A stretch of DNA of 51,897 nt, taken from positions 1 to 51,897 of IMG/VR virus record IMGVR_UViG_3300020156_000459. The stretch is one strand, 5' to 3'. Positions within the stretch are counted from its first letter, which is position 1; each line of letters begins with the position of its first letter. A program made the position numbers and the translations under genes. The stretch comes from a virus. Lineage: Duplodnaviria; Caudoviricetes. This document shows, in pieces, positions 29,887 to 51,897 of this stretch. Under the pieces are notes generated by a model. It made no database searches, was not told the origin of the DNA, and saw only the letters and a program-made list of their open reading frames with translations.

Positions 29887-30011
29887 TTCAATACCCTCGT
29901 TTGGTGGCGTACCGCAGTTGCGGTGCAGCGCGGATAGGCCGGCGCTCCTACGGAGCCTTGGCGCTATCTCGCGGGTGCGGTAGTGGCGGCCCGAAGGCCG
30001 CCACCGCACGA

Positions 30012-30674: not shown

Positions 30675-30740
30675 GACGGCCTCTCTTTGGGATTGGGGAC
30701 CACAGTCCCATTGCTGCGCTGCACGCGTTTTGACGCGCGT

Positions 30741-31921: not shown

Positions 31922-31928
31922 GGAGACC

Positions 31929-34633: not shown

Positions 34634-34636
34634 CGC

Positions 34637-34900
34637 TCAGCCCTCCATCCCGAGGGCGACCTTGTACAGGTCGAGCAGCGACTCCTGCTCCTGCCGGTCG
34701 CTCTGGTCCATCTTCCGCAGCTTGATGATCTGCCGGATGATCTTGACGTCGAAGCCCTGGCCCTTGGCCTCGGCCATGATGTCCCGGATGTCGTCGGCGA
34801 GGCCCTTCTTCTCCTCCTCCAGGCGCTCCACGCGCTCGATGATGCTGCGGAGCTGGGCGCCGGCGATGCCCTGGACGTCGTTGACGGTGGTGTCAGCCAT
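34637..34900 (-). CDS. gapR: GapR/DUF2312 family nucleoid-associated protein
   Basis: QLRSIIERVERLEEEKK..ADDIRDIMAEAKGQGFDVKIIRQIIKLRKMD...EQESLLDLYKVALGM. Confidence 0.92.
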   Translation of the reverse strand: MADTTVNDVQGIAGAQLRSIIERVERLEEEKKGLADDIRDIMAEAKGQGFDVKIIRQIIKLRKMDQSDRQEQESLLDLYKVALGMEG

Positions 34901-34908
34901 CTCGTACC

Positions 34909-35529: not shown

Positions 35530-35555
35530 GGGGTGCTTACCTCCTGGGGGATGGA

Positions 35556-35903
35556 TTACGGGGCGCGTCTGGACGCCAGCGACAGGACGGCGCCGGCGAG
35601 CATGGACAGTTGCAGGGTGACCGGGATGCGCGGCTGCGCGCCGCCGACGATCTGGCCGGCGAGGCTGATGGCGTCGGACAGCGACACCGGCGGCGTGACG
35701 ATGCACAGGCCAAGCGCGGTGTCGGGCAGCACCTTCAGCCGGTGGCGATGGCCGGTGTCGTCGATCAGGGTCAGGACGATGCCGTCGCTGGCGTTGACCA
35801 GCGTCTGCACCTCGCCGCGCAGGCTCAGGCCGTCGCCCAGCGGCACCTCGACGCGCGAGCCGGGGCGGATCTCCGGGCGGACGGCTGCGGCGGGAACGCT
35901 CAT
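35556..35903 (-). CDS. Hypothetical phage protein (115 aa)
   Basis: ATGA coupling; natural composition. Confidence 0.55.
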   Translation of the reverse strand: MSVPAAAVRPEIRPGSRVEVPLGDGLSLRGEVQTLVNASDGIVLTLIDDTGHRHRLKVLPDTALGLCIVTPPVSLSDAISLAGQIVGGAQPRIPVTLQLSMLAGAVLSLASRRAP

Positions 35904-36412
35904 GCCGCGTCTCCCCCGTCGCCGTCCTGGCGCGGCCACCAGCCCAGCCGATCGAGCAGGCGGGAGACGCGCCCCTTGGCGTCCTGCCGGCGCATCTCCT
36001 TCCGACGCGCGTGGTAGGCGGCGAAGTCGGACACGCCGGGCGGCAGTGCCCGCGGCACCTGGGGCACCTGGGGCTCCGCCGGGAAGCGGATGGCCATGGC
36101 GGCCTGCATGTGCTCCACCTGCGCCACCTCGCCGGCGATGCGGACCAGATCCTCGGCCAGGATCATCAGCTCGCTCACGTACAGGGGGCGGTAGGGGTCG
36201 GCGTCGGCGCGGCTGCGCAGCATGCGGGCCTTGGCTTCGATCCGGACGGCATAGGTCAGGTCGGCGGCTTCGGCCTGGGCGGCGACGGTGTCCAGCCGGT
36301 CGGCCAGGGTGCGCGTCTGGTCGGGCGCCTGCTGCGCGGGGCGGACGGTCAGGCCGTTGATCAGCTGCGCCACCACCGTGATGGCGTCGGCGATGGGGGT
36401 TGCGATGTTCAC
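35900..36412 (-). CDS. Hypothetical phage protein (170 aa)
   Basis: GTGA coupling to the upstream gene, GAGG RBS. Confidence 0.55.
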   Translation of the reverse strand: MNIATPIADAITVVAQLINGLTVRPAQQAPDQTRTLADRLDTVAAQAEAADLTYAVRIEAKARMLRSRADADPYRPLYVSELMILAEDLVRIAGEVAQVEHMQAAMAIRFPAEPQVPQVPRALPPGVSDFAAYHARRKEMRRQDAKGRVSRLLDRLGWWPRQDGDGGDAA

Positions 36413-36780
36413 GGGGCACCTCGTTCGGCGGGAGGGGCGGTGCGGTGGGGACAGGACGGGCAGGACGAGCGCAGCAGGCGGGCCAGCGGCGCGTGGGGGC
36501 GGAACGGTTGATCCTGTTCGGCGCGGCAGCGGTTGGCGTCGATCTCGCCCAGCACCGGGCAGGACAGCGGCGCGCCGAGGGTCTGGATGACGGCGGCCTC
36601 GATCTTGGCGGTGCCGGCGGCGTAGCTGGCCGACAGCACCGCCGACACGGCGGGCTTGCCGTAGCCGATCCGGGCGGCGGCCTGGGCCAGCGACGTGGCG
36701 TCGGCCTCGGCGGCGAGGCGCAGGACCCAGGGCGGCGGATCGCCCCAGGCGGCGGCGGCCTTGGCGACGAAGGGCGTCAT
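36409..36780 (-). CDS. HTH transcriptional regulator of Mu-like phages (123 aa)
   Basis: AWGDPPPWV..LA, SLAQAAARIGYGKPAVSAVL HTH, CPVLGEI...C...CPSCPH. Confidence 0.75.
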   Translation of the reverse strand: MTPFVAKAAAAWGDPPPWVLRLAAEADATSLAQAAARIGYGKPAVSAVLSASYAAGTAKIEAAVIQTLGAPLSCPVLGEIDANRCRAEQDQPFRPHAPLARLLRSSCPSCPHRTAPPAERGAP

Positions 36781-37373
36781 GCGGCCTCCATCGCGGCGGC
36801 AACCGCGTCGCTCGGGCGCCAGACCACGTCCCACAGGTTGGGGTCGTACAGGGCCCCGTCGCGCAGCGGCATCGGCGGTTCCGGCCCGGTGTTCTTGCCC
36901 CGCGCGATGCGGTAGCGGTAGAGGCGGGCGCCGGGGTCGGCCGCTTCCAGATAGCCGGCGCGCGCCAGGGCGGCGATGTAGGTCTTGGTCGTGTTGATGT
37001 TGACTCGCGCCAGGCCGGCCAGCTCCTCCGACGTGAAGCCTCCGCGCAACGGGCGCATGGCCGACCACAGCCGTTCGGTGGTCGTCGGGTGTGGATCGAG
37101 CTTGCCGCCACGGAAGCGAGGGGCGCGGCGGCCGAGATCACGCGCCAGCGTGTACACCGACGGCAGCAGTTTTCCCCGATGGCGTGGCCGCTCGGATGTG
37201 ATGATGCCGTTGCCCATCAACAGCTTGAGGAACGCCTTGACCTGCCGCTCCGGCACGGCGGCGCCGGCGCGCAGCTCGTCGAAGCCGAAGGTGCGCAGCC
37301 GCCGCGCCTCGCGCCACAGCAGGGCGTGATCGACGAAGCGCATCCGCCGTTGACGCTCGTCGGGGCGGATCAT
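36777..37373 (-). CDS. Tandem winged-helix protein following MuB (198 aa)
   Basis: LW..MR.L..FT..ELA, YIAALARAGYL, NTGP.PP, LYDPN. Confidence 0.75.
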   Translation of the reverse strand: MIRPDERQRRMRFVDHALLWREARRLRTFGFDELRAGAAVPERQVKAFLKLLMGNGIITSERPRHRGKLLPSVYTLARDLGRRAPRFRGGKLDPHPTTTERLWSAMRPLRGGFTSEELAGLARVNINTTKTYIAALARAGYLEAADPGARLYRYRIARGKNTGPEPPMPLRDGALYDPNLWDVVWRPSDAVAAAMEAA

Positions 37374-38137
37374 GCGAAGCGCCTCACCGCAGGAGCCGCG
37401 CCGGTGTTGATCCGCTGGCCGGCGTAGTCGGCCAGCGACACGCTGCGCAGCCCCTCGCCCTTGGCGAAGGTGGCGACGTTGACCAGGTTCATCGATACGC
37501 GGCGCGTCGACCCGTAGGTCTGGCCGATGAGATGTTCCAGCAGATCGTCGGCGACGGTGATGTCCGGGCAGTACAGCTTGGCCAGCTCGCGCGCGTCGTC
37601 GCCGTCGCAGGGCTGGGCGGCGACGAAGTCGAACACGCGGCTGTGGAAGCGCTCGTACCGCTGGAGCTTCTGCGGCAGCCCCTCCTCGCCGATCAGGATG
37701 ATGGAGGCGGTGCCGGGCGCGGCCATGTCGTGGAAGGCGCGGACCTTGTCGATCATCTCCTTCTTGGCCAGGAAGTCGCCCTCGTCGATGACCAGGGGGC
37801 GGCGCGAGGTCTCCAGTTCCTCGGCGATCTTCTCCGCCATCTCGTTGTTCGTGGCGTGCGTGGGGAGCGCCAGACCCATGGCGTCGACGATGGCGCGCAG
37901 CATGGCGCGCGGGGTCCAGTAGTCGTTGGCCTCGACGTAGTAGGCCATGTGCTCGCTGGCGGCGATCCAGGCGGCGGCGCGGCTCTTGCCGTCGCCGCTG
38001 CGGCCATGGAAGACACCGAAGCCGGAGACGTCGGAGGAGCGCGTCTTGAGCCCGATGACCAGCTCTTCCAGCAGGGTCAGGTTGCGCAGCGGGGCCCAAC
38101 GGCTGGCGGTCTTGCGGGGGGCGGCCGATTTCTGCAT
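37370..38137 (-). CDS. MuB-like AAA+ transposition ATPase
   Basis: GRSGDGKS Walker A, LVIDEGD Walker B, IILIGEE, ERFHSRV; downstream of the transposase. Confidence 0.92.
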   Translation of the reverse strand: MQKSAAPRKTASRWAPLRNLTLLEELVIGLKTRSSDVSGFGVFHGRSGDGKSRAAAWIAASEHMAYYVEANDYWTPRAMLRAIVDAMGLALPTHATNNEMAEKIAEELETSRRPLVIDEGDFLAKKEMIDKVRAFHDMAAPGTASIILIGEEGLPQKLQRYERFHSRVFDFVAAQPCDGDDARELAKLYCPDITVADDLLEHLIGQTYGSTRRVSMNLVNVATFAKGEGLRSVSLADYAGQRINTGAAPAVRRFA

Positions 38138-38216
38138 GGTGGGGGTCCTTCGATCAGTGCTGTTTTCCGTGCGGTCCGCGGCGTCCCATCTGGCCATGGG
38201 CGCCGCTGGCCGGATC

Positions 38217-40391
38217 TCATTCGACGGGACGGGCGAAGCGGGCCTTGCGCTCCTGGTCGCGGCGGCGGGCCTGGTACCAGGCCGACGTGCGGTTCGACGC
38301 CAGCCAGTCCAGATCGTCCTCCGACACCTCCTCGCCGGCCTCGATGCGCGCCTCGATCGCCTGGGCGCGGCGCCACCAGCGGTCCTCCGGCTTCTCGGCG
38401 GCCTGGGCCGGGGCGGCGAGGCGGCGGGCGACGTCGGCCTGCCGGACCGTGTCCGCCTCGGTGCGCGGCGCCGCGACGGCGGGCTTCGACGCGGTGATCG
38501 CGCGCTGGGCGGCCTCCAGGCCGGCGGAGGGCGGCGGCAGGGACGAGCGCGGCAGCGCGGAAACCGTGGCCGCGGGCCTGCCGATCAGCGCGTCGGCGAG
38601 CTGGTGCGGCTTGAACCCCTTGCCGGCGGCGCGGATGGCCGCCTTCTGATCGGCGATCAACTGCTGTTGCAGCGCCTTGGCCTGGGCCGACAGCTCGGCC
38701 CGCGACAGGCCGGCGCGTTCCGGGTTCTGGGCGATGCAGAGGAATTGGAACGGATCGGGGCGGTACACGAAGACCCGGTCCATCCGCTCCGGATCCAGTC
38801 GGACCTCCAGGCGGTCGCCGGTGCCGACGTAGGGGATCAGCTCCGGCGCCCAGAAGTCGGCGTTCTCGACCCGGATTCCCTTTTTGCCCACGGTGCGGGT
38901 GCCGTCGCCGTCCGCGCAGGGCATCAGCAGCAGGTCGAGTTGGCGTTCGTCGACGACGCGCCACTCGGATCCTGCGTGCTCCTCCGCCACGGCGGCCGGG
39001 GTGCGGTCGCCCAGGCCGGCGTGCGGGCTGGTGTGATAGCGGTTCTCGACCCACGCATCGGCCAGCATCTGCAGCTCGGCCGCCGGCAAGGCCGCCTCGA
39101 ACACCTCTTCGTCCTTCTGGCCCAGGCGGGCGGCGAAGGTCTGGCGCGAGCGGATCTCCTGACGCTTGGCCACGTTGTGGCCGGTGTAGCCGGGCAGCAG
39201 CGGCATCAGCCCGTGCTGAACCGTGCCGATCGCGCGCTCGACGTGCGGCTTCTGCTCGGGCGAGTACGGTGTGCAGACGGGGTGCCGTATGGCGTCGCCA
39301 ACCAGCGCGAAGAAGCGTTGCGTCTCGCGGGCCAGGAAGTCGGAGCCGTTGTCCGTCTTGATCGCCTCGGGCATGCCCCAGGCGAGGATGGCCCGGCGGA
39401 TCAGCAGCAGCACGGCCGAGGCGCGCGGCACCTTGGTGACCAGGATCAGCATGCGGCGCGTGAAGACGTCGACCACGACGTAAATCGTGTGCCGCCCATC
39501 GGTCAGCATCAGGTCGGTCGGGCTGGCGTCGATCTCCCACAGCTCGTTGGGCTTGGTGATCGCCTCCGAATAGGAGCCGACGGCAACGAGGCTGCGGTTC
39601 TTCCAGGCGTCGGGGTTGGTCAGCCGCAAGTGGAGCTGCTTGTACTCCTCGCGCCATTGGTTGAGGCGGCGGCGGATCCAGCCGGCGGTGGGCATCTTCG
39701 CCTGACCGCCGCGCAGCAGCTCGAACCCCTCGCCGAAGCGCTTGACCAGGGCCGCCCGGTAGGCGTCGGCGTTCCAGTCGGGCTTGGCCAGCGCCACGGC
39801 GACCAGATAGCCCATGATGTCCTCGCGCGCCTGATCCAGCGACCCGGCACCCTTGCGGTTGCCGTAGGCGCCGGCCAGCCGGGCGGCCTCGCCGGACTCC
39901 ACGGCCTCGACCCAGCGGCGAAGGGACGATGGGGACACCGTGGGCTTGGCGGCACGGGCCCAATCCGGCACGTCCACCTCGCGGGCGTTGTAGAAGCCGG
40001 TGAACTTGTGCACCAGCCGGTCGCGGGACAGGCCGCCGGCCTGCCGCTCGAAGGCGAGGAAGGCGTTGGCGATGGTGGCCTTGGCGTCCAGCCGGGCCTT
40101 GCCGGCCTTGGTCAGCACCACCGGGGCGGCGGCGGTGCCTTTCAGCGTGGCCGCGAGCTTGGGCGGCGCCGGCGGGGTGGCCTGCTCGGCGGCGCGGCGG
40201 CCCAGTTCGATGCGGGCTTCCGGCGGAAGGGCTGTGACGTGGTACTCGGTGCCGCCGCCGCGGCCCTGGCGGGGGCGAGCGGGCGACCAGCGTTCCTGCT
40301 GGGCCCGCATGTTGATGCCGCGCTTGGTGGACGGCAGGCCGGGGAGCGCGAAAAAGGCCAGTTCAGAAGCCGTGTACCAGCTTTCATCCAT
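38217..40391 (-). CDS. MuA-like DDE transposase (724 aa)
   Basis: N-terminal WYTASELA..LPGLP...GGGTEYH DNA-binding domain; WEIDASPTD, KTDNGSDF, KPHVERAIGT catalytic D-D-E. Confidence 0.96.
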   Translation of the reverse strand: MDESWYTASELAFFALPGLPSTKRGINMRAQQERWSPARPRQGRGGGTEYHVTALPPEARIELGRRAAEQATPPAPPKLAATLKGTAAAPVVLTKAGKARLDAKATIANAFLAFERQAGGLSRDRLVHKFTGFYNAREVDVPDWARAAKPTVSPSSLRRWVEAVESGEAARLAGAYGNRKGAGSLDQAREDIMGYLVAVALAKPDWNADAYRAALVKRFGEGFELLRGGQAKMPTAGWIRRRLNQWREEYKQLHLRLTNPDAWKNRSLVAVGSYSEAITKPNELWEIDASPTDLMLTDGRHTIYVVVDVFTRRMLILVTKVPRASAVLLLIRRAILAWGMPEAIKTDNGSDFLARETQRFFALVGDAIRHPVCTPYSPEQKPHVERAIGTVQHGLMPLLPGYTGHNVAKRQEIRSRQTFAARLGQKDEEVFEAALPAAELQMLADAWVENRYHTSPHAGLGDRTPAAVAEEHAGSEWRVVDERQLDLLLMPCADGDGTRTVGKKGIRVENADFWAPELIPYVGTGDRLEVRLDPERMDRVFVYRPDPFQFLCIAQNPERAGLSRAELSAQAKALQQQLIADQKAAIRAAGKGFKPHQLADALIGRPAATVSALPRSSLPPPSAGLEAAQRAITASKPAVAAPRTEADTVRQADVARRLAAPAQAAEKPEDRWWRRAQAIEARIEAGEEVSEDDLDWLASNRTSAWYQARRRDQERKARFARPVE

Positions 40392-40878
40392 GATCGGCCT
40401 CCCGGATGCGGGCCTTCAGCTGGCTCCGGGCGGCCATGTAGCGGGCGACCATCCCATCGCCGGCGTCGAGCATGCGGGCGGCTTCCCTGGCGTCGACGCG
40501 GCCGTCATTGCCCATGGCGGCGGCGAACTCCGCGAAAAGCCGACCTACCTGCTCACCAACGGCGGCCAGATCCTGGGGCAGGTTGCCAGCGTCGGCGTCG
40601 GTGAGGGGGCGGAACAGCAGGTAGCCCTGCTCGGCGGCCAGGAACTCGGTCACCACCATGCAGCCGGAGGCCGCCTGTAGGGCCCGCACGTCCGGGACCT
40701 TGAAATGCGCATTGCGGTTCGCGGAGTCCGGATCCGTGATGCGCTGGATCGTGGATTGCGACAGGCCAGTTAGTTCGGCCGCGCGATCCTGGCCCCGGCA
40801 CCTCTCGACCAGTTCGGCGTAGGACGCTTTGAGGGTGCCGGGTTGCCGGGGCTTATACGCGCCTGGGTATTGGGCCAT
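40384..40878 (-). CDS. CII-like/HTH phage regulatory protein (164 aa)
   Basis: AAELTGLSQSTIQR HTH; C-terminal AMGNDGRVDAREA. Confidence 0.65.
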   Translation of the reverse strand: MAQYPGAYKPRQPGTLKASYAELVERCRGQDRAAELTGLSQSTIQRITDPDSANRNAHFKVPDVRALQAASGCMVVTEFLAAEQGYLLFRPLTDADAGNLPQDLAAVGEQVGRLFAEFAAAMGNDGRVDAREAARMLDAGDGMVARYMAARSQLKARIREADHG

Positions 40879-41139
40879 GGTTTTACCCGTTGTGCGAGTA
40901 GCGGTTGCGATGCGACGGTCAAGGCGCGAGGAAATGGAGGATTAAATGCGGCTTGATCGAGCAAACTTCGGGCGGGAGGCGGTCAAGCACCTACTGGTGG
41001 GACTCGCCGCGCTGGGCGCGGCGATGTCCTCCGGAGGATCGGCGCGGGTGGCGCTGGTTGATGAGGCGGGCCGCCGGTTCGGCTATGCCGCGGCAGTGTG
41101 GAAGGTGCGGGGTCTGTACCCGGCGCGGGACGGCGAGGG

Positions 41140-41427
41140 TCATGCCGCAGCTCTTTCCTCGGCGCCGCCGCGGGTGCGGCAAAGCCGGACACCGTCTGGC
41201 CGGTAACGCTCCGGAAACAGGTCGTGCACGGCGACTTCCAGCCGGTCGGCCAGCGCCCGCTCGATCCTTTCTGACGGTAGGAACAGGGCCTGCGACACGG
41301 CCTGGGCGCACACTTCCAGCTCGGCCGCGATCTGGCGCAGGCTGGAGCCCTTCCGCTTCAGGGAGGCGACCACCCAATCTCTGCGGTCCTGTGGGTCCGA
41401 GGGTACTCCGGATCTACGCATCGTCAT
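41140..41427 (-). CDS. ner: Ner-like transcriptional regulator
   Basis: WVVASLKRKGSSLRQIA...IERALADRL....DLFPERY; divergent from the repressor. Confidence 0.88.
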   Translation of the reverse strand: MTMRRSGVPSDPQDRRDWVVASLKRKGSSLRQIAAELEVCAQAVSQALFLPSERIERALADRLEVAVHDLFPERYRPDGVRLCRTRGGAEERAAA

Positions 41428-41563
41428 CCCTACGACTATCGATATGTCTACCGTCGTATCACGAGCATGCTTCGCATGCAACGAGCATTTTCGATGTGGG
41501 AATCCTTCCCGGTTCGGCCCACGCTTGAAGGGCGCGCGCATGTGCAAAGGCGACGGGATAACA

Positions 41564-42124
41564 ATGACTTACGACAACCGGGAAGGGCCGGACGAAGTGG
41601 GAAGGGCTCTTCCCACTTACGAGGCGGAACTGGGAACACGGATTTCCCTCGTCATCGACCTGTACGATCTTAAGGCCGACGCGGCACGGGTCGCGGATGT
41701 TACGCCCGAGATGTTGAACCGGTACGTGCGCGGACAGCACAAAATACCCTTCACCAACGCCGCTCGGCTGGCTTCAGCCAAAGGTGTCAGTCTTGACTGG
41801 CTGTGGAGCGGAGAAGGACCAATGCTTCTGCGTGATCGCGTGCACGACTCGCCGCCAGCGGCGGTCGAGTCATTCGACCTTGCGTTGATGGGCAATCTCG
41901 TGTCCGGCCTGATGGCATTCCTGCAAAGGGAGAGCCTGGATCTAGATCCGGAATACATTGGTCGGGCGGTGACCCTGCTTTACATGCTGATGGAGCGCGA
42001 GCGCCGCGACACCACCCCGGAGGATCGGCCGGATCTGTGGGTGGAGGGGCACCCCGTGGACATCGCAAACGATAAAATCCTGGCGGAAACCGTACGCCTC
42101 GCACTCGGGCGGTTGCGTAGGTAG
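41564..42124 (+). CDS. Prophage repressor (XRE/CI-like HTH); start uncertain
   Basis: AARVADVTPEMLNRYVRG, GVSLDWLWSGEGPM; divergent from ner; no peptidase S24 domain visible. Confidence 0.8.
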   Translation: MTYDNREGPDEVGRALPTYEAELGTRISLVIDLYDLKADAARVADVTPEMLNRYVRGQHKIPFTNAARLASAKGVSLDWLWSGEGPMLLRDRVHDSPPAAVESFDLALMGNLVSGLMAFLQRESLDLDPEYIGRAVTLLYMLMERERRDTTPEDRPDLWVEGHPVDIANDKILAETVRLALGRLRR

Positions 42125-42614
42125 GACTATCAGGTGTAGCTTCATGGCTCGCCGCAACCCTGAGTACGTGAGTATGCAGGCCGCGGTGGGGGCCAGGGCT
42201 ACCAACCCCGGTCGCCCAGGGTGCGCACACACCCCGGAACGAGAGAACGCAACGACACGCGCTAGTCGCGTCTCGCCCCCCAGCCGCCACGCGGCAAGGG
42301 GAAGTGTAAGGCCGGGAGTGTGCATGAAAAGCTTAGATGTCGAAGCGTGCTTCCCTTCAAAAACCGTGATCCTCGCCGAATTTGAGGCGATACTCATCCA
42401 CGCTCGCCCACGGCGTGTGGTCGCATGCCCCTTGTGGAATGGAGAGTTGAGAGCGTGTCAAAAAGACGATATTTCAACTCGGCCAGAACAGAGGGGCAGC
42501 CTTGCTCCTCATCATGATCAATGTGGTCGGTGAGCGCTGAATTTTCCGTGCGTGTGTAGACGATTGTAGACGGTAAAGCGACAACGCAAAGAGACACATC
42601 GGAGGAACGCAGCA

Positions 42615-42851
42615 ATGAAGCCGGAAGACCGTCCGACATCCATGGTTTCTTTTCCGCTAACAATAGTTGGCGTGCTATTTCTTGCCGGAGGCGGGATGAT
42701 GCTAACCGGCACTCCGCCGAACTTCATCGGCTCGATCGGCGCGGTGGGGATCGGGCTAGCCCTGATCGGCTTGGCCGGCATCAACACGCGCTTGGCCGAG
42801 GTGATCCACGAGTTGCGCCTCATCCGCGCCGCCGCAGAGAGGGTGCCATGA
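42615..42851 (+). CDS. Small two-TM membrane protein (moron)
   Basis: GGAGG RBS; two hydrophobic helices. Confidence 0.7.
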   Translation: MKPEDRPTSMVSFPLTIVGVLFLAGGGMMLTGTPPNFIGSIGAVGIGLALIGLAGINTRLAEVIHELRLIRAAAERVP

Positions 42852-43372
42852 AAGCCGGTCACCTCGCCCTGTCTGCTTTCTTCCTTCTCGGATCAGCCGG
42901 GCCTTGCGCGGCCGATTGGCAGTTCACCCGATGGGGAATGACGGTCGAGGAAGCTGTTCGTGCAGCTGGGGCCGCAGGGGTGAATGTGGATGCGGGCGGC
43001 ACTGTGCCTTCCGGCGACGGCAAGCTTACGAAGCTCCCCATTCCATACTACAAGGTGGGCAGTATATTTTTTGATATATCTCTGGTGTTCGAGTCGCCGG
43101 ATAATAGGCTTGTCATGGTGCTGATGACGGTGAGTCAGCGCGGCGATTTTGACAGGCAGAAGCTCGACGCCCTGCGTATGGATTTGCTTCAGGCGTTCGG
43201 CTCTCCTTTTGCTGTGAATCAGCAAGACGGGTTTGACCTCGCGATGTGGCGCGACGTGACCCGCAACAACCGGATATTCGCGAAAATCCGCGTCGATCCG
43301 CCGGGCAGAACGGGCGGCCTGCGCGACACCTCCATCATGTACACGCCGCTCGTTCCCGTCAGCGCCTTCTGA
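42848..43372 (+). CDS. Exported protein (moron, 174 aa)
   Basis: Signal-peptide-like N-terminus, then WQFTRWGMT..E; lower GC; ATGA coupling. Confidence 0.7.
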   Translation: MKAGHLALSAFFLLGSAGPCAADWQFTRWGMTVEEAVRAAGAAGVNVDAGGTVPSGDGKLTKLPIPYYKVGSIFFDISLVFESPDNRLVMVLMTVSQRGDFDRQKLDALRMDLLQAFGSPFAVNQQDGFDLAMWRDVTRNNRIFAKIRVDPPGRTGGLRDTSIMYTPLVPVSAF

Positions 43373-43379
43373 CCGGCCA

Positions 43380-43554
43380 CCGTCAAACCATCCGTCCGTC
43401 AGCGTACAATGCGGCGATGTCCGTATGGTTTGACAGAACGGAGTGGACGCGTCTCGAAAACCTAGGCATCACAACGCCTGCACGTCCCACTCGATCCCCC
43501 AAAATCCCACCGTATCCCGGCCCCCTATCCCGTCAAACCATTGGTCTCTCTACA
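43380..43554. repeat. Prophage repressor-side end (Mu L-end equivalent) with three end boxes
   Basis: CCGTCAAACCAT at 43380-43391 and 43530-43541, inverted ATGGTTTGACAG at 43425-43436; terminal CTACA. Confidence 0.88.
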
Positions 43555-44292: not shown

Positions 44293-44339
44293 TGTAGCGC
44301 GCCGAATGGTTTGAATTGGCGCGCTGGATGGTTTGACAG
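44293..44339 (+). repeat. Terminus of the second element with two end boxes
   Basis: TGTAGCGCGCCGAATGGTTTGAATTGGCGCGCTGGATGGTTTGACAG versus prophage TGTAGCGCGCCGAATGGTTTGACGGGCTGCGCCGGATGGTTTGACGG; same 22-bp box spacing. Confidence 0.93.
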
Positions 44340-44390: not shown

Positions 44391-44807
44391 CTAGGCTAGC
44401 GCCGGCAGTGTCGCATCGTCGCCCAGGTGCGCAATTTGAACATTCCTTCCCGGCGGCTTCCCCCCTGGAGGCTCGATGATAACAACGCCGTCTTTCGTAT
44501 GATAATGGATAATCAGGACTGTGCGCGCACATCTGGCGGGATTGGAAAGACGGGACAGGGCTTGCCGATTGTACTTTTTCAAAAAGCGAAAGCATTCACG
44601 CATATAGATCCTGTATTCTTCCTGAATATCTTTGCGGAGCTGTTCCAATGCCGTTGGGCATGGCGGGTTGCCGCACAGATCGCTTTCCCACTTGGCAAAT
44701 ACATTATTCAAACGCGATGAAAGGTCGGCCGCCACTTCCCCTGACAGCAGGCGCGCGGTTACCTTCTGTGGGCGCTCCCCTGTGCCGTCATACGCGTGCT
44801 GCATCAA
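44391..44807 (-). CDS. Hypothetical low-GC cargo protein (138 aa)
   Basis: Longest plausible ORF in an AT-richer patch; no family recognised. Confidence 0.45.
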   Translation of the reverse strand: MMQHAYDGTGERPQKVTARLLSGEVAADLSSRLNNVFAKWESDLCGNPPCPTALEQLRKDIQEEYRIYMRECFRFLKKYNRQALSRLSNPARCARTVLIIHYHTKDGVVIIEPPGGKPPGRNVQIAHLGDDATLPALA

Positions 44808-44891: not shown

Positions 44892-45416
44892 TCACTTCGG
44901 CTGCTCGCCGTTGACGAGCTGCCAATAGGCGTCCTCCATCGCCTTGCCGATCACGCGATAGCCGGCCATGGCTTCCACGAGGTCGGGCGAGAAGTCCGGC
45001 AGCGTCGAGAAGAAGGCATTCCAGCCGTGGTTGTCGGGCAGCCCCACCACCACCTTCCGCAGCAGCTCCGTGCGAAAGCCCTTGTGCTGGCTTTCCAGCT
45101 TCTCGACTTTGGCGTTGAGTTCCTTCAGATCCTTTTTCGCCTTGGCGGCGTTGCCGTCCGACGCTTCCAGGGCGAGTTTCGCGGCCTCCTGCTTGGCCTC
45201 CGCGATCTCGCTGACGCGCTGGCCCAGCTCGGCGATGAGCTGATCGTGCTCGCTGTCCGGCAGCAGCATGAACGACAGATAACAGGTCTTTTTGACCTGT
45301 TTCCCACCCACCCAGCCGCCGCTGGCACGCTTGGCCGTTTCCGGCCAGTTGAACATGACCGGCCACACAAACGTCATTTCGGTGGGGGCTGCAAGAGTAA
45401 TCTTAACCTGTTCCAT
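44892..45416 (-). CDS. Tail assembly chaperone homologue (G-type, 174 aa)
   Basis: Clear paralogue of 14050-14544: TFVWPV/TFDWPV, LLRKVVVGLPDNHGW/LLRRVVVGLPDNHNW, DLVEAMA, WQLVNG/WKLVNG. Confidence 0.88.
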   Translation of the reverse strand: MEQVKITLAAPTEMTFVWPVMFNWPETAKRASGGWVGGKQVKKTCYLSFMLLPDSEHDQLIAELGQRVSEIAEAKQEAAKLALEASDGNAAKAKKDLKELNAKVEKLESQHKGFRTELLRKVVVGLPDNHGWNAFFSTLPDFSPDLVEAMAGYRVIGKAMEDAYWQLVNGEQPK

Positions 45417-45439: not shown

Positions 45440-45820
45440 TTAATCCATCAACGAATTGAAGTATTCTGCAATGTCTCTCCATTCGCCTGTCAAAGACTGC
45501 TTTGCTGATGCGATCAGGTCATTGATGTACACCTCAACTTCGAACCTGACATTCTTTCTTTTGTTTTGGTACAGCGCGCTCAGTCGGCGCCTCTGCCAGC
45601 GCTTTGTTAACATGGACCCGAGAAGGCGTTCGGTGTCGTCAATGTGCGCCACCAGTATTCTCTCAATGCTTGCTCGCAGATCGGAAAACAGAGGATGTCT
45701 GGCATCAAAATGTTCTGATGATCCAACCAGTTCAGAAAACGCATTGCGATTGCTGATATCCCAGCGTTCCAGCACGCTGCGGATTGCGTCAGCTCCGTTT
45801 GTCGGCATAGCGGGGCGCAT
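45440..45820 (-). CDS. Hypothetical low-GC protein (126 aa)
   Basis: ATG coupled to the upstream TAA; helical and charged. Confidence 0.55.
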   Translation of the reverse strand: MRPAMPTNGADAIRSVLERWDISNRNAFSELVGSSEHFDARHPLFSDLRASIERILVAHIDDTERLLGSMLTKRWQRRRLSALYQNKRKNVRFEVEVYINDLIASAKQSLTGEWRDIAEYFNSLMD

Positions 45821-46482
45821 TATCCGAAACTCGACGCTGTTGCGGTTCTGGATCGGTATTCGGCCGCGTGCGGGCACCCAAAGCGGTCGTAATACTCGCT
45901 ATAATCAGGGTAAAATCCTGCTATTTTTTGATCGGCGCCATGCTCATTTACTTCGGTAAGATGCATGACGCCACCAATGCACATTGGTTGACTAAATTTC
46001 TCCTGTACCTTGTGCTGCCCAAGCGCCATCTTTACCATCATGGCCTCATCGGCATGCGCGGGAAGGCGCACACCCGGCGCCATTCTGGGCGCAAGATGAA
46101 TGCCCGGCTCCATCGTGGTCGCCTGGACAGGCACACCACCGGCGCGAAGCTTGTACCTCGTGCTCTGCGGCGCCTGCTTGTTGGCGGACCAGCACATCAA
46201 CGTGATTTCACCACCGGACGCTTCGAAGAATTCATCACCGATACGCTCGGGGACGCCGCGAATAACGATATCCACATGCTCTATGCTTTCGACGCGCGCC
46301 AGTACAGGCCCAAGGACTTGAAGAAGCGCATGTGTTCCGCGCATGGAGAATGCAAATCGGCCGCTCTCAGAGACGAAACACTTTCGTTCGCAAAGGCCAA
46401 CCGGCATGTTGCCCCGGTATATCATCGTGTCCGTCAGGCACAAAATGCGGTCGCTTCCCACGAATACGTTGCTGACGCTCAT
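45820..46482 (-). CDS. Hypothetical protein, possibly Ntn-hydrolase/proteasome-beta-like fold (220 aa)
   Basis: N-terminus MSVSNVFVGSDRILCLTDT and late CIGGVMHLTEV resemble the Ntn pattern; tentative. Confidence 0.55.
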   Translation of the reverse strand: MSVSNVFVGSDRILCLTDTMIYRGNMPVGLCERKCFVSESGRFAFSMRGTHALLQVLGPVLARVESIEHVDIVIRGVPERIGDEFFEASGGEITLMCWSANKQAPQSTRYKLRAGGVPVQATTMEPGIHLAPRMAPGVRLPAHADEAMMVKMALGQHKVQEKFSQPMCIGGVMHLTEVNEHGADQKIAGFYPDYSEYYDRFGCPHAAEYRSRTATASSFG

Positions 46483-47867
46483 TTAATTGCCTCTTCGAAC
46501 GCGGAGACGACTTCGGGGCAGGTCAAGAATTCGTCCGAGAACTCACACTCGGCCATAACCTTCTCAAGCTCGTTGGACAGATCCTTCAGATTGTCCGTCT
46601 GGGTCACGACACCGCCACTGCCGTTGGCGGGCGGGGCGTTGTCCTGCTTCGTCAGGTCGTTGAGTTCGCGTTGCAGCTCGATCCGGCGCTTGACCAGCGC
46701 CTCATGCATGGCGGGAACGCCGCTCGTTTTCTCGGGAAGGCGCCCGTACTCCCGGTCTATCCGCTCGATCTCCGCCCGCAACAGCGACGCCCTGTCCGAC
46801 TCGATGCCGGCGCGAAGCGCCTTGGCCGCGTCACTGACCTTGCCCGCAACCAGCTTGGCAATGTCGCTCCGGGCGAGGCGGTCAACGTAGGCGTCCCAGG
46901 CCACGCCAGCGTCATGCAGCGCGGCGCCCCACTCGCTGCGCATGGTCTGGGCCGCGCCACCGTACCGCTGGCGCAACGCCTCGATGGCGACGTTCAGCGC
47001 GCCGGCCTTGTTGCCGTGGTCAGCCAGCATGCGCACCTGGCGCTCTTGCTCGACCGACAGGAAGTTCAATTCCGCATCGAGTCGCTTGACGCCCTCGCCC
47101 CCCTTGCCGAGAGCGTCCCCCATCTTGGCGGCGGCGGCCGGGATCGTGTAGCCCAGCACCGCCGCAACATCCGGCGCGAGTTCCAGGATGCTGCGGAACA
47201 GCTCCGGGTCACGGAGGTCGGGGTTGCGCACCAGCTCCAAGGTGGACTGGTATGCTTCGCTGCGGGACGCCCCTGCATGGATCGCGACGTTCGCCATGTC
47301 GCGGAGCTGGCCGGCCGTGATGCCGGCCTCATTGCCCATCGCCTTCAGGATGGACGCGAGTTCCCGCCCCTCGGCACCGATGCTCGCCATGCGCGCGGCG
47401 ACGATGCCGATCGGCGCGGCGATCACGGCGGCGGCGGCGCCGATGCCCAGGATGCGGCCCGTGATGCCGGGGAACGCTTGGAGCAACTGCCCGCCCTGTT
47501 GCATCAGGACGGTGAACGGGCTGGCGCCGGACGACAGCGATGCCGCAACGTCGCTGGCCGTGTAGCTCAGCGCCTGGATCTGCTGCGTGCTGAACCTCGT
47601 CTTGGTCGCCAAGTTGTCGTTGGCGCTGGCCGCACCGCCGAACGCCGCACCGGCCCTGTCGGCGGCGCCGGCCGCAGCGCCCAGCGATTGCTTCGCCTCG
47701 TCCGCCAGTGTGTCCAGGCGGCCAAGCGCCTGTGAAAGTTGCTGGCCAGCTTCCCGGCCAGTATCACCAAGCTTGGACACCTCGCCCGTTGCCTTGCGAA
47801 GCTCCACTACGAAGTCTTCGGCTTCCGCAGTCAGCTTGAGGACGACGTGTTCTGCAACCTTGGTCAT
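46479..47867 (-). CDS. Short tape-measure-family protein (462 aa)
   Basis: VVLKLTAEA N-terminus; QQIQALSYTASDVAASLSSGASPFTVLMQQGGQL lambda-type TMP motif; LNFLSVEQERQVR.L...GNKAGA. Confidence 0.85.
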   Translation of the reverse strand: MTKVAEHVVLKLTAEAEDFVVELRKATGEVSKLGDTGREAGQQLSQALGRLDTLADEAKQSLGAAAGAADRAGAAFGGAASANDNLATKTRFSTQQIQALSYTASDVAASLSSGASPFTVLMQQGGQLLQAFPGITGRILGIGAAAAVIAAPIGIVAARMASIGAEGRELASILKAMGNEAGITAGQLRDMANVAIHAGASRSEAYQSTLELVRNPDLRDPELFRSILELAPDVAAVLGYTIPAAAAKMGDALGKGGEGVKRLDAELNFLSVEQERQVRMLADHGNKAGALNVAIEALRQRYGGAAQTMRSEWGAALHDAGVAWDAYVDRLARSDIAKLVAGKVSDAAKALRAGIESDRASLLRAEIERIDREYGRLPEKTSGVPAMHEALVKRRIELQRELNDLTKQDNAPPANGSGGVVTQTDNLKDLSNELEKVMAECEFSDEFLTCPEVVSAFEEAIK

Positions 47868-47984: not shown

Positions 47985-48905
47985 TTACAGGTACGGGGAC
48001 ACCACCAGTTCGGCGGTGCCGGCCCACTCGTTGGGCGCCGCGACCGTCTGTTCGTTCGGCGCCGTGCCCACCGTGACCAGCTTCATGTTGTTCTTGATGA
48101 GACGCAGCCCGTCGCCTTCCAACTCGTCCGGCACCACGAGGATGTTGGGGGTAAGGCCCAGCTTCTTGCCGTTCTCGCCCCGGATGCTCTTGATCGCCAC
48201 GCGGGCCGCCTCGTAGTTGTCGTGCGTCAGCGGCGCCTTGCTCGCATAGGCGAGCTGCCAGAGCCCGAAGCCGGCGTTGGCGCGCGCGCGGACGCCGTAG
48301 AAATACTCGTCTTTCCAGAAGACGTTGTCGTCCGTGGCGGCGTCCTGCCTCTGGAACTCGTACGGCAGCCGCTCCTGAAACACGAGGGGTTTGACCGGCT
48401 GGCCGGCGTCCATCAGGAACCACGCCGGCCCGGCCCCATCCTGATAGTTGCTGTAGGACGTAGGCTGACAGTCGATATCCACGACATGATCAGTGGAGAA
48501 GAACGGCTTGCCGTCGTAGCACAGCTCGGTAAACCCGGCTGCCAGAAGCTCGTACACCAACTGGTCGGGGTGCTTCGCCGCGTCGGCGCCCATCTTCTCG
48601 TACAGCGGGCCGAAGACGCCGTACTGGTCATCTTCGATGGCCGTACGGGGAACGCCAATGGTCACCTCAAACGTGCGGTTCTTGATGGTGTAGCCCGCGA
48701 CTTCAAGGTTATGGATGATACGCGAGCCGATCCATTCCCGAAGCTGCGGAAGTTCCTTCAACCAACCATAAGCTTCTTCGCCCGTCGCGCTGTTTGTCTT
48801 CATGGCGATTTTCAGGTACGTGCTTTCGACGCCCTTGAAGCCCTTGTTGAAGGAGGTCTTGAACCCGGCGAACATGCCGGCGAGGTTGGGGGCGGTGATG
48901 AGCAT
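47985..48905 (-). CDS. Second Mu-like major capsid protein (306 aa)
   Basis: YGWL...LREWIGSR, IEDDQYG, CYDGKPFFSTDH, GFGLWQLA, PNILVVP; intact, diverged paralogue of 18087-18980. Confidence 0.95.
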   Translation of the reverse strand: MLITAPNLAGMFAGFKTSFNKGFKGVESTYLKIAMKTNSATGEEAYGWLKELPQLREWIGSRIIHNLEVAGYTIKNRTFEVTIGVPRTAIEDDQYGVFGPLYEKMGADAAKHPDQLVYELLAAGFTELCYDGKPFFSTDHVVDIDCQPTSYSNYQDGAGPAWFLMDAGQPVKPLVFQERLPYEFQRQDAATDDNVFWKDEYFYGVRARANAGFGLWQLAYASKAPLTHDNYEAARVAIKSIRGENGKKLGLTPNILVVPDELEGDGLRLIKNNMKLVTVGTAPNEQTVAAPNEWAGTAELVVSPYL

Positions 48906-48914: not shown

Positions 48915-49880
48915 TTACAGGTTCTTGGCGTATTCGGCCGGATCGTGTCCGAGGGCCGCGCAGATGGCCTTCTGTTCGGCGGTAAGGCGCCCATCGGCGC
49001 CCGAGTTCGGATCGGGCGGCCGGCCCCCCGGCACCACCTCACGGGCGAGGTTGCCGAACACGGGCGGAGCGCTGGCGGCGAACTGGTCGAAGCTGGCCGG
49101 GTTGGATCGGCAGAGGACGAGCCCCCACTCCCGCTGGGCCGGTGTCATCTTGCCGGCGCGGATCGCGGCGTCGACCTTGGCCGTCGCCTGCTCCTCCGAA
49201 AGGTTGGTGCGCATGCTGGCGAGCTGCGTCGCGGCTTCATCATAGAGATGGCGCGGCACGTAGAGGGACGGGTCGGGCACGGCGGCGGCCGTCGCCTTCT
49301 CGCTGGCGTCCTTGACCAGCTTCGTGACGGCCTCGATCACGGCCGCTTCGTCGCTGGTGTCGGGCAGGTTCAACAGCGCGCACAAGCGCTTGATGGTTTC
49401 GGGCGACATGGGCGCTCCCATACTGGCAAGGGCCTTGAGTTCGAAGGCCGGGTTGTTGACCAGGGCGGCCCGAAGAATGCAGGTGACCGCGCCTTCCTTG
49501 GTGTGCCGGAAGACGGGGGACACGTAGCGGTACTCCCTGGCCGCGATCTTGGCAGCGGCGCGCTGCGTCCACTCCACGCGGCCCCAGATGCCATCAGGGC
49601 GGGCCTCAAAGGCCGCGATCCAGCCTGCGGCGGGCGCCTGTCCACCGTGCGGGGCGGCGAGGTCAACGGCGTGGTCGTAGTCGATCACCGGCTTGACCGG
49701 ACCGGCCATCGTCAGGGACGCGGCGATCACCTGTTGCGCGGCGGCCATGCCGGGAAGGGACCAGGGGCCGCGACCGTCGCGGCCCTTGATGGTGCCGTAG
49801 GGCAGAAGCTGCACCCAATCCGGCGGTGCGGCGGGGAGTTCGGAAGAGAAGGAGGCGAGAGCGATCAGGGGATCAGTCAT
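48915..49880 (-). CDS. Second Mu-like protease/scaffold (321 aa)
   Basis: WVQLLPYG...DGRGPW, IDYDH, APAAGWI, VEWT, EYRYVSPVF, ALVNNPA, LTAEQKAICAALG. Confidence 0.95.
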   Translation of the reverse strand: MTDPLIALASFSSELPAAPPDWVQLLPYGTIKGRDGRGPWSLPGMAAAQQVIAASLTMAGPVKPVIDYDHAVDLAAPHGGQAPAAGWIAAFEARPDGIWGRVEWTQRAAAKIAAREYRYVSPVFRHTKEGAVTCILRAALVNNPAFELKALASMGAPMSPETIKRLCALLNLPDTSDEAAVIEAVTKLVKDASEKATAAAVPDPSLYVPRHLYDEAATQLASMRTNLSEEQATAKVDAAIRAGKMTPAQREWGLVLCRSNPASFDQFAASAPPVFGNLAREVVPGGRPPDPNSGADGRLTAEQKAICAALGHDPAEYAKNL

Positions 49881-50247
49881 TGCTAATATCCCCATAGATC
49901 TCGCGGCGCACTTTCCTTACGTGGCGTTCAGTACATCCCACGGCCTGTGCGACGACACGCGTTTTCGCGCCTTCCATCGCCAATATCAGTTCCTTCTTGG
50001 AACCAGCCGGCGGCGGCAACACCGGGATGTCAATCTGTTCTCCAGGATACATATTTCCTATTATTTTGGCGTGCTCCAGTCCGACAATCTTTGCGATCTT
50101 GGATCGTTCCGAAGGGCTCGCGGCAAATTTCCTCTTAGTGCCGCCCCAAGAAAGGCCAAGTTTTATTGCCGTTTCGTATGATGTCGCCCGCGCAATACCC
50201 GCCAAGAAGGGAGGAAGCCTCTTGATCCTGTCATCAGTGATCGCCAT
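49873..50247 (-). CDS. Mor/C-family activator homologue (124 aa; start could be further upstream)
   Basis: Shares WGGTKRK, YPGEQ.D.P and GCTERHVRKV with 29039-29413. Confidence 0.85.
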   Translation of the reverse strand: MAITDDRIKRLPPFLAGIARATSYETAIKLGLSWGGTKRKFAASPSERSKIAKIVGLEHAKIIGNMYPGEQIDIPVLPPPAGSKKELILAMEGAKTRVVAQAVGCTERHVRKVRREIYGDISND

Positions 50248-50272
50248 AGCCTTGACGTAGCCCCCCGGCATC

Positions 50273-50330
50273 GGAATTGGTTCCGACACTAGGGGGACGG
50301 AGAAGCGTCTATCGACGCGGAACTAGTTCC
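50273..50330 (-). promoter_or_regulatory. Putative late promoter of the second element
   Basis: GACGCGGAACTAGTTCC (50314-50330) with TAGTGT 27 nt downstream of the core; second dyad GGAATTGGTTCC at 50273-50284. Confidence 0.65.
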
Positions 50331-50404: not shown

Positions 50405-50429
50405 CGTTTGAACGGGGCTTTGAACGCCT
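50405..50429. other. Copy of the prophage mid-genome motif (candidate gyrase site region)
   Basis: CGTTTGAACGGGGCTTTGAACGCCT, 24/25 identical to 20706-20730. Confidence 0.55.
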
Positions 50430-51553: not shown

Positions 51554-51581
51554 CTACTGCTCCAAACTGCGGTTGCGTTGG

Positions 51582-51652
51582 CCCCATGCATGGGGTAATT
51601 TGCCCCAGATTGGGCGCCGTTGCAATGGCAAAATGCGCCAACGTTGGGGTAA
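51582..51652. promoter_or_regulatory. Operator-like palindromes in the divergent promoter region
   Basis: CCCCATGCATGGGG, CCCCAGATTGGG, CGCCAACGTTGGGG; TGGGGTAA occurs twice. Confidence 0.55.
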
Positions 51653-51660
51653 ATCGCACC

Positions 51661-51897
51661 ATGATTACGGGTGACCAAATCCGGGCCGGCCGGGAACTGC
51701 TCAACTGGTCTGCCCGCGTCTTGTCTGAGCGGGCAGGCGTGGGGCCGAACACGGTGCAGCGCATGGAAAGCGCCGGAGCGGCGGTGCCATCAGGTCTTGC
51801 CGCCAACCTGGACAAGGTGCAGAAGGCATTAGAGGCGGGTGGGATTGAGTTCCGGGACGGCGGGTGGGTGCGTAGGTCACCGCAGAACGGCGCGTAA
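51661..51897 (+). CDS. XRE-family HTH regulator (78 aa)
   Basis: MITGDQIRAGRELLNWS...LSERAGVG..TVQRME...KVQKALEAGGIEF. Confidence 0.88.
   Translation: MITGDQIRAGRELLNWSARVLSERAGVGPNTVQRMESAGAAVPSGLAANLDKVQKALEAGGIEFRDGGWVRRSPQNGA

Follow-up and report, generated by a model that had tools for sequence, protein, structure and literature searches.

A short tape measure gene on a putative mini-Mu satellite adjoining a Mu-like siphophage

To our knowledge, the known phage satellites (P4, PICI, cf-PICI and PLE) all integrate by recombinases, and the first demonstration that a satellite can remodel tails dates from 2026. Engineered mini-Mu elements have Mu ends without the transposase genes, are moved in trans by A and B of a helper and are packaged by that helper. 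The element explored here also has Mu-type ends without transposase genes, but whereas mini-Mu and mini-D3112 (PMC8705779) are laboratory constructs without structural genes, it occurs naturally, has genes for both head and tail proteins, and its products are only 40-50% identical to those of its presumed helper. A literature search found, among the titles listed, no report on a transposable-phage satellite or a natural mini-Mu satellite.

By the account in PMC12987554, PLEs, satellites of Vibrio cholerae phage ICP1, encode a tape measure protein (TMP) and a tail assembly chaperone (TAC) of their own, as the mini element does. These enter chimeric tails that are 10 nm shorter and otherwise consist of helper parts, length being set by the satellite ruler (PMC12987554). 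The same account has PLEs integrating by a recombinase, exploiting a lytic myovirus as helper, using that helper's capsid protein and carrying a baseplate hub, and gives a difference of 95 residues between the satellite's and the helper's ruler (PMC12987554). In contrast, the mini element is of the Mu-type transposable kind, has its own capsid protein and protease and no recognised hub, and its ruler belongs to another family than the helper's and is 4.4 times shorter. EPIP satellites of Mycolicibacterium, as presented in a preprint (PMC12822802), likewise carry capsid, scaffold and tape measure genes and alter tails; they differ in their serine integrase, their actinobacterial host and their longer and variable tails, while those of the mini element are predicted to be shorter. 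cf-PICIs resemble it in having their own capsid protein and protease; they rely on helper tails, and the legend to Extended Data Fig. 10 of PMC12987554 mentions putative tmp genes in some of them. They encode an integrase, a primase, a terminase and a portal, whereas searches of the mini element with Pfam, PHROG and the helper's proteins found no integrase, primase or replication, terminase or portal gene.

The mini element and its presumed helper

The window, the whole stretch of 51,897 nt that was analysed, holds two Mu-type elements side by side. The presumed helper is a complete Mu-like (B3/D3112-type) siphophage of 42,015 bp (1540..43554, minus strand), flanked by a 5-bp target duplication (CCGGT). 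It encodes a repressor, a Ner-like protein, transposase A and B, lysis, terminase and portal proteins, as well as gpF, I, T, connectors, a G/GT chaperone and a tape measure of 2035 aa. The mini element spans 8,507 bp (44293 to 52799), running 902 bp past the window end, and has its own 5-bp duplication, GACGC, at 44288-44292 and just past its left end. Its right end (44293..44337) reads TGTAGCGCGCCGAATGGTTTGA.., contains two ATGGTTTGA repeats and matches that of the helper at 87% over 45 nt, with the first 22 nt identical. The left arm starts at 51554..51897 in the window and continues to 52799 (L003 5069); the left end, which reads TGTGGAGAGACCAATGGTTTGAC on the coding strand, is identical to the helper's at 58 of the first 62 nt and matches it at 90% over 70 nt. 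The window has 10 copies of ATGGTTTGA where 0.13 would be expected, and seven of these are at element ends. The termini of the mini element are of the TG..CA type, and each of its ends carries repeated transposase-binding motifs.

The insertion sites of both elements are empty, with contiguous flanks, in the related Azospirillum genomes G060 and G058. The source genome holds these four ends and no others; among 130 family genomes the ends closest to the helper's are those of the mini element, and none as close were found in the 129 others. In run X4, one joint (depth 4.2) leaves out precisely the mini element; it agrees with the empty sites but is too weak to be counted. Small elements of the Mu type that are related to it, with only transposition genes, protease and capsid, occur in four other Azospirillaceae genomes.

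Neither transposase A nor B of the helper has a match in the mini element at E 0.01, and its ORFs have no Pfam or PHROG match to such proteins; lacking a DDE transposase A and MuB, the element is non-autonomous. Of the 18 helper proteins, it encodes counterparts to four, namely C, I, T and the chaperone; the other 14, among them A, B, terS, terL, portal, gpF, tube and lysis proteins, have none. Since there is no portal gene, its capsid protein would need to assemble on the portal of the helper. We thus find a discrete mobile element without essential virion, replication or packaging genes, whose cis sites (the ends and a 23-nt motif described below) are compatible with the co-occurring helper. 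The helper-like ends, separate target duplication, empty sites in relatives and partial gene complement bear out, on the structural side, the initial annotation's proposal of a satellite. The left 1.25 kb contains no convincing ORF; one ORF there was considered as a ribbon-helix-helix candidate and rejected, as Pfam gave no match for it.

The 462-aa tape measure and its relatives

The short tape measure gene lies at 46479..47867 on the minus strand (ATG at 47867, stop at 46479) and encodes 462 aa. A GTG 63 nt upstream would extend the protein to 483 aa; the ATG is where its homologues begin. Residues 94-279 match Pfam PF06791 (TMP_2) with 85.7 bits and an E-value of 4.5e-24, the gathering score being 30.2 bits, and a PHROG search yielded matches to six tape measure families. 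As a single sequence, the protein aligns with lambda gpH (PDB 8iyk_H), a tape measure whose place is known from experiment, at E 1.5e-9, residues 98-316 corresponding to chain residues 70-294, while the profile of its family extends the alignment (52-429 to 33-425, E 1.9e-7); PDB 9l9p_B is matched at E 3.4e-10. Residues 123-127 read QQGGQ and are aligned with the QQGGQ of gpH. A single hydrophobic segment spans roughly residues 135-165, and the C-terminal peptide CEF..F.EA.K is conserved. By family, the protein is a tape measure of the TMP_2/lambda gpH type. It shares with gpH (8iyk chain H, 853 aa) the TMP_2 core with QQGGQ but is about half as long, has different neighbours in a different gene order and, instead of a counterpart to the C-terminal half of gpH, has only the short conserved peptide.

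The helper's tape measure (7534-13641, 2035 aa) belongs to Pfam PF20155 (TMP_3). It lacks QQGGQ; BLASTP between the two tape measures gave a best E-value of 0.024 over just 50 N-terminal residues, and no C-terminal similarity was found. An N-terminal motif common to both was considered and judged generic, as its stricter form [TS]AD[AG]S is N-terminal in 3 of 154 relatives. Judging from sequence, the two tape measures are unrelated and fall in different Pfam families. This upholds the initial annotation, which had described the short protein as a member of another family, with a lambda-type QQGGQ missing from the helper's, and had denied that it is a deletion derivative of the latter. It also makes docking to the helper's tail tip putative, since neither the family nor the C-terminus resembles that of the helper's ruler.

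Non-self homologues are 448-464 aa long in five of eight cases, with the same N and C termini, and an internal coiled-coil insert sets apart those of 766-767 aa; both termini are conserved in full-length alignments across homologues that are 36-60% identical. Among 1.84 billion proteins the six closest representatives have 323-766 aa, and the other 144 among the matches listed have a median of 1361.5 aa. The possibility, raised beforehand, that homologues are all much longer and the protein a truncation was checked and not borne out: the closest homologues are equally short and have both termini in common. All this indicates that the ruler is genuine and that its short length is inherited.

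A close homologue is present in just one genome among the GTDB species representatives. A scan of JGI metagenomes yielded at least six loci, all distant, and an IMG/VR scan with the tape measure family yielded 80 loci with identities of about 26-38% throughout; of 41 matching records from cultured phages, none reaches 80% query coverage. For the tape measure and the downstream gene product p220, homologues have longest contigs of equal length (8,946 and 3,331 bp), as do chaperone homologue P0016 and tape measure homologue P0004 (3,498 bp each), co-location being deduced from this equality in both cases. Two IMG/VR islands, L207 and L208, encode a TMP_2 protein of 562 aa and then a p220 homologue straight after the head genes. 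Neither tube nor connector genes were recognised in these islands, which carry genes for integrase, primase, terS, terL, portal, protease-capsid and decoration proteins and, by gene content, look like cf-PICIs.

Gene order and products of the late operon

The genes around the tape measure are ordered capsid, TMP, p220, p126 and chaperone homologue. The tape measure gene neither follows a frameshifting G/GT chaperone nor precedes tail-tip genes, and no tail tip or hub gene was recognised in the mini element. It had been described as directly following the capsid gene; the capsid gene does precede it, but 117 nt with a G+C-rich stem-loop intervene before its ATG. The overlap of its stop with the next start, also described beforehand, was recovered (ATGA), and the late operon as a whole is compact and coupled in translation, a second junction, TAATG, joining the p220 stop to the p126 ATG.

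p220 (45820..46482, minus strand) has a predicted Ntn-hydrolase fold and appears proteasome beta-subunit-like according to AF2 and Foldseek. Its AF2 model (pLDDT 79.6, pTM 0.82) displays the alpha-beta-beta-alpha arrangement, and the top Foldseek matches in the PDB are all 20S proteasome beta subunits (E 8e-9, TM 0.59-0.66). Residues S2, D18, K34 and G49 are invariant in four aligned sequences, and S2, D18 and K34 may correspond to the proteasome nucleophile and its Asp17/Lys33-type partners. A Pfam search with p220 gave nothing at E up to 1, and in a literature search the term 'proteasome-like' was not found among the best matches. p126 (45440..45820, minus strand; a 145-aa ORF if read from an upstream GTG) is a small helical protein without a family match in Pfam, PHROG, NCBIfam or PADLOC, for which the protein atlas gave nothing usable.

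The chaperone homologue (44892..45416, minus strand, 174 aa) is 44% identical over 171 aa to helper ORF 14050-14544. The helper ORF ends in GGGAAAC, after which an ORF in the -1 frame, matching DUF1799 and phrog_680, runs to the tape measure start; on these sequence features the helper ORF is tail assembly chaperone G. At the 3' end of the mini element's homologue there is no slippery heptamer and no T extension, and its AF2 model has a pLDDT of 61.8, insufficient for searching by fold. Next to the right end lies p138 (44391..44807, minus strand), an AT-richer cargo gene with an AGGAG ribosome-binding site and no family match in Pfam, NCBIfam or PADLOC.

Upstream of the tape measure, the minus strand encodes a Mu gpT-type major capsid protein of 306 aa (47985..48905; PF10124, E 4.9e-113), which is 50% identical to the helper's, and a Mu gpI-type head protease/scaffold of 326 aa (48915..49895; Pfam, PHROG), which is 41% identical and has a scaffold part about 50 residues shorter. 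A Mor/C-type late transcriptional activator (49873..50289, minus strand, phrog_836) is about 40% identical to that of the helper (29078-29440) by tblastn. The 23-nt motif GCGTTCAAAGCCCCGTTCAAACG at 50405..50427 (minus strand) has one other copy in the window, at 20706-20728 upstream of the helper's protease gene, with 0 chance matches expected; it is a candidate late promoter or activator site common to both elements. The products p147 (50589-51032, minus strand) and p174 (51029-51553, minus strand) have no family match in Pfam, PHROG, NCBIfam or PADLOC, and an NCBIfam search of the mini element's ORFs returned nothing. In two soil metatranscriptome runs, identical contigs cover genes of the element, the tape measure among them; these were not counted as transcription because host flanks and early genes of the helper are present at similar depth.

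A possible short ruler for short tails, and the alternatives

With a probability of roughly one half, we consider the 462-aa protein to be the tape measure of a natural, non-autonomous mini-Mu that is a satellite of the adjoining helper siphophage. We infer every functional step of the mechanism. Transposase A and B of the helper would move and replicate the mini element by way of the common ends, the helper's late activator would turn it on through the promoter-like motif found in both, and packaging by the helper's terminase would begin at the conserved left end. Smaller heads may result from the element's own capsid protein and shortened scaffold. The tape measure, held by its own chaperone, would nucleate polymerisation of the helper's tube protein into a short chimeric tail, and p220 would either process the satellite's ruler or remove that of the helper. 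Work on lambda gives about 0.15 nm of tail per tape measure residue, and at this ratio the predicted tail measures about 70 nm, while the helper's would reach about 300 nm. That helper tube protein is built into short tails is plausible by analogy with the chimeric tails that the PLE report describes (PMC12987554). Several features speak against the satellite reading: the missing portal gene; the order capsid, TMP and, further on, chaperone, instead of the canonical chaperone-then-TMP; a tape measure of another family than the helper's, with no tip or hub gene recognised; and a chaperone homologue without the frameshifted T extension. In lambda the T extension recruits the tube protein.

The lack of this extension can be read in another way, as the homologue could then compete without recruiting tube protein. 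We hold it to be unlikely that an interference module, made up of this homologue, the short tape measure and p220, builds no transmissible tails and instead sabotages the way in which the helper or superinfecting relatives assemble theirs. Titration of tube protein or chaperone and cleavage of the phage's tape measure are examples of the routes that it might take, and the host would be defended or resources biased towards the element. The translational coupling of a predicted hydrolase, p220, to the tape measure fits such a role, and tail-assembly blockers are known on prophages and satellites, as described for Rta (PMC12987554), Tab (PMC10884400) and Tai (PMC11364771). Against it, PADLOC found no credible defence family in 10 ORFs of the mini element (the sole match being JetA, E 0.0078, for the chaperone homologue), and homologues that are 36-60% identical keep both tape measure termini, which a mere decoy does not obviously need. 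In PLE11, Rta is described alongside the satellite's own tape measure (PMC12987554), so interference may complement tail-building rather than exclude it. A head-associated or DNA-delivery (pilot/ejection) module of capsid-encoding satellites, made up of the TMP_2-like protein with its one hydrophobic segment and p220 and independent of tail length, appears quite improbable: the pair does come after head genes instead of tail genes both here and, straight after them, in L207 and L208, but homology to lambda gpH over residues 98-316, matches to further annotated tape measures, the coiled-coil insert that separates the 766-aa relatives, as in rulers, and a tail chaperone homologue in the same operon all favour a ruler.

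That the element is the decaying remnant of a second Mu-like prophage, its tape measure a functionless leftover, we regard as very improbable. Internal deletions in place would likewise keep both ends and the target duplication, the left arm lacks a convincing ORF, and the close family is confined to one genome among GTDB species representatives. However, protease and capsid protein match their Pfam models end to end, gene junctions overlap, and the order TMP, p220, p126, chaperone cannot be reached from a canonical phage by deletion alone. The conserved length and termini of the tape measure also argue against decay, as do the equally long longest contigs with p220, chaperone and tape measure homologues and a 93-96% identical relative in another soil run, in which 16 of the 24 changed p220 codons among those listed are synonymous. 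Finally, the ends are nearly identical to those of the helper, yet the proteins are just 40-50% identical.

Returning to the satellite reading, we tentatively suggest a larger possibility, namely that the mini element is the first of a satellite class that hijacks a Mu-type transposase and remodels both virion ends, giving small heads and tails of roughly one quarter the length of the helper's. A ruler-coupled, proteasome-like protease would then clear the helper's tape measure or mature the satellite's, and the small Mu-like elements of Azospirillaceae would be autonomous cousins. The mini element points to a new kind of phage parasite, one that may make short tails of its own. If a satellite borrows a transposase, parasitic elements would have a further, new route to replication and to packaging together with flanking host DNA, which would affect how genes are transferred among soil bacteria. 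A single helper-satellite pair with rulers of 462 and 2035 residues, from two families, would put the protein-ruler model to a strong natural test, and likewise the docking of a foreign ruler on the helper's tail tip. The conserved pairing of a short tape measure with a proteasome-fold protein, found both here and in capsid islands of the integrase type, suggests that tail assembly, or interference with it, includes an undescribed step.

Two Mu-type insertions side by side

The window corresponds to a whole provirus record, and nearly all its genes lie on the minus strand. Family matches to the encoded proteins identify a complete Mu-like siphophage at 1540-43554, with repressor, Ner-like protein, transposase A and B, endolysin, terminase, portal, gpF, protease I, capsid T, connectors, chaperone and tape measure. 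Its termini, TGTAGCGCGCCGAATGGTTTGAC.. and ..GTCAAACCATTGGTCTCTCTACA, were determined by k-mer comparison and direct reading, and CCGGT is present on both flanks. L003, an Azospirillum sp. MAG record holding the same DNA, extends the reading 6 kb beyond the window end. A second pair of Mu-type ends encloses 44293-52799 (8,507 bp, hereafter the mini element), with GACGC on both sides. Of the first 62 nt at the left ends, 58 agree between mini element and phage (90% over 70 nt); at the right ends, 22 nt are identical (87% over 45 nt). The motif ATGGTTTGA occurs ten times in the window versus 0.13 expected, seven copies being at element ends. The other three are internal to the phage (13655-13663, 17667-17675 and 29865-29873), one of them directly upstream of its tape-measure start.

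The source genome contains exactly these four Mu-type ends of this kind. In a search of 130 family genomes, the right ends of related full-size phages resembled these with 1-3 mismatches, and left ends elsewhere show 2-3 mismatches at best, against 0 and 1 for the two elements here; according to control columns, three-mismatch matches are at noise level. Both insertion sites are empty in G060 and G058, relatives with approximately 90-92% flank identity in which each flank pair is contiguous. Since each has its own ends, its own flanking 5-bp repeats and an empty site in relatives, mini element and phage are separate transposition products. The mini element is a non-autonomous Mu-type element, the cis sites of which copy those of the neighbouring complete phage. 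The two are separated by 738 bp (43555-44292) and have the same orientation; Mu target immunity would be expected to disfavour two Mu-type elements this close. The insertions lie inside and beside a host metallo-beta-lactamase-fold gene.

In DNA run X1, which may be the source, a 9,000-bp contig (L003 4805-13804, window ~44064-53063) comprises the mini element with 264 and 229 bp of flank. Its k-mer depth, which is not equivalent to copy number, is 469, versus 162 where a contig continues into the phage and 95-148 in host contigs; the high value could stem from additional copies, from additional strains or from packaged DNA. An RNA-library contig from run X2 fits the mini element inward from its left end (L003 ~5065), its first 26 letters not matching the locus flank; a copy located elsewhere or variation between strains may account for this.

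The short tape measure

The initial annotation described a tape measure of 462 aa with a lambda-type QQGGQ motif, from another family than the 2035-aa protein of the presumed helper phage, and this is borne out. The protein encoded at 46479-47867 (minus strand) matches Pfam TMP_2 (PF06791) over residues 94-279 with 85.7 bits (gathering score 30.2), as well as six PHROG tape-measure families. It is homologous to lambda gpH (PDB 8iyk; E 1.5e-9), LLQQGGQV of gpH aligning with its LMQQGGQL, and the profile of its family matches gpH residues 33-425 of 853. The helper protein (7534-13641) belongs to TMP_3 (PF20155), its sequence lacks QQGGQ, and BLASTP between the two gives an E-value of 0.024 at best. 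The annotated gene order was also correct: the stop overlaps the next start as ATGA and the capsid gene precedes, with a gap of 117 nt (47868-47984) between its end and the tape-measure start. A stem-loop rich in G+C, GGCCGGCGCTGG .. CCAGCGCCGGCC, lies in this gap; it has no T run and may act in transcript attenuation or stabilisation.

A word-indexed protein search identified eight homologues besides the window's own, all with a common C-terminal peptide. Five are 448-464 aa long (36-60% identity over 81-99% of the query), one has 565 aa by extension at the N terminus, and two reach 766-767 aa through a coiled-coil insert of about 300 residues in the interior. In 1.84 billion representatives, HMMER detected 4350 relatives, the six closest among the matches listed having 565, 460, 449, 766, 323 and 464 aa. 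Of the best 150 of these 4350, 12 are shorter than 600 aa and 112 have at least 1000 aa; the median of the 144 remaining without the six closest is 1361.5 aa. In the GTDB species representatives, no genome apart from the source contains a close relative. The other GTDB loci (n=79) have no capsid, protease, p220 or chaperone homologue near the tape-measure relative, and 26 of the 28 measured encode 844-1368 aa. The mini-element tape measure is short by descent.

Gene content and the conserved module

From the left end inward on the coding strand, the mini element consists of approximately 1.25 kb in which an ORF scan gave no convincing ORF, then p174, p147, a 23-nt motif, a Mor/C-type activator, protease/scaffold I, capsid T, tape measure, p220, p126, a 174-aa protein, p138 and the right end. 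A 65-aa left-arm ORF (L003 5688-5885 minus; window 51983-52180 plus, past the window end) points away from the late operon and has zero Pfam matches; judged by eye it is ribbon-helix-helix-like and may be a small repressor.

Four of 18 helper proteins have a counterpart: activator and protease/scaffold I (41% identity each), capsid T (50%) and the 174-aa chaperone homologue (44% to the helper's 164-aa protein). The helper chaperone ORF, just upstream of its tape measure, ends in the heptamer GGGAAAC (14056-14062), followed by a -1 frame ORF that reaches the tape-measure start (to 13667) and matches DUF1799 and phrog_680. It is a G/GT tail assembly chaperone of the classical lambda type, with a canonical frameshift site. 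At its 3' end the mini-element copy has neither slippery heptamer nor extension. G+C content is 62.8% in the mini element versus 69.7% in the phage. The 23-nt motif GCGTTCAAARCCCCGTTCAAACG has only two window copies, upstream of the helper protease gene (20706-20728) and of the mini-element activator gene (50405-50427); a conserved inverted repeat GGAAC..GTTCCGCGTCG is found about 90 nt beyond both.

The predicted structure of p220 (pLDDT 79.6, pTM 0.82) matches only 20S proteasome beta subunits (E from 8e-9, TM 0.59-0.66), and Ser2, Asp18, Lys34 and Gly49 are invariant in all four sequences. The longest contigs of p220 homologues equal in length those of tape-measure homologues P0003 and P0009 (8,946 and 3,331 bp), as does that of chaperone homologue P0016 for tape-measure homologue P0004 (3,498 bp), which is indirect evidence for co-location. 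The conserved short ruler of lambda type is part of a translationally coupled module, to which the homologue of the helper chaperone also belongs.

Related islands and the possible role of the short tape measure

Two IMG/VR islands (L207 and L208, 94% alike) encode an integrase, a primase fragment, terS, terL, a lambda-type portal, a protease-capsid fusion and a decoration protein. Directly after these head genes, a 562-aa TMP_2 protein has a stop overlapping a p220 homologue with 37% identity (pair at L207 6422-8730 and L208 8316-10663). This protein has only the core motif in common with the 462-aa family, and in neither island could a tube or connector gene be recognised; both are cf-PICI-like.

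Among the 130 family genomes, 19 have capsid homologues, at 24 places in all. Outside the source genome there are 17 such places besides the four that were read, which were picked from the best non-self matches to the mini-element capsid: L219 (G044:C27), L220 (G120:C58), L221 (G078:C156) and L222 (G076:C77), all Azospirillaceae. Protease I and capsid T are present at all four; the 7-20 kb read around them contain nothing that matches portal, terminase, gpF or tape measure. Upstream lie Mu A-like, MuB-like and GemA genes at two places and MuB and GemA at one, the fourth being cut by a contig end. The L219 element, an island of low G+C and ~8.2-8.5 kb, has inverted terminal repeats GGGAATTATCCTGCACTGG, and the activator-I-T block of L220 is enclosed by an 86-nt inverted repeat (99%). 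A third Mu-like head-gene cluster in the source genome (L173, G001:C27:40000-59999) has a capsid 47% identical to that of the mini element and 963-aa and 610-aa ORFs downstream.

A search for literature on Mu-type phage satellites found nothing on point; the relevant text of PMC8705779 presents mini-Mu and mini-D3112 as engineered tools only. PLE satellites of Vibrio cholerae are described as using their own TMP, TAC and hub for chimeric tails 10 nm shorter than the helper's, with helper TMP excluded (PMC12987554). According to a figure legend in that source, PLE-like elements and cf-PICIs have putative tmp genes, and EPIP satellites are described with a TMP and longer tails (PMC12822802).

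Of three alternatives for the short tape measure, the strongest is a decoy or interference role; PLE11 is described as adding Rta, a blocker of helper tail assembly (PMC12987554). A role other than that of a ruler comes second. Simple decay of the mini element ranks last; another soil run contains relatives of its genes at 93-96% identity, and 16 of the 24 listed codon changes between p220 and its relative there are synonymous. On the reading that we prefer, that of a working ruler, the helper would drive transposition, activation and packaging of the mini element, which would form small heads and carry tails of about 70 nm built of helper tube protein.
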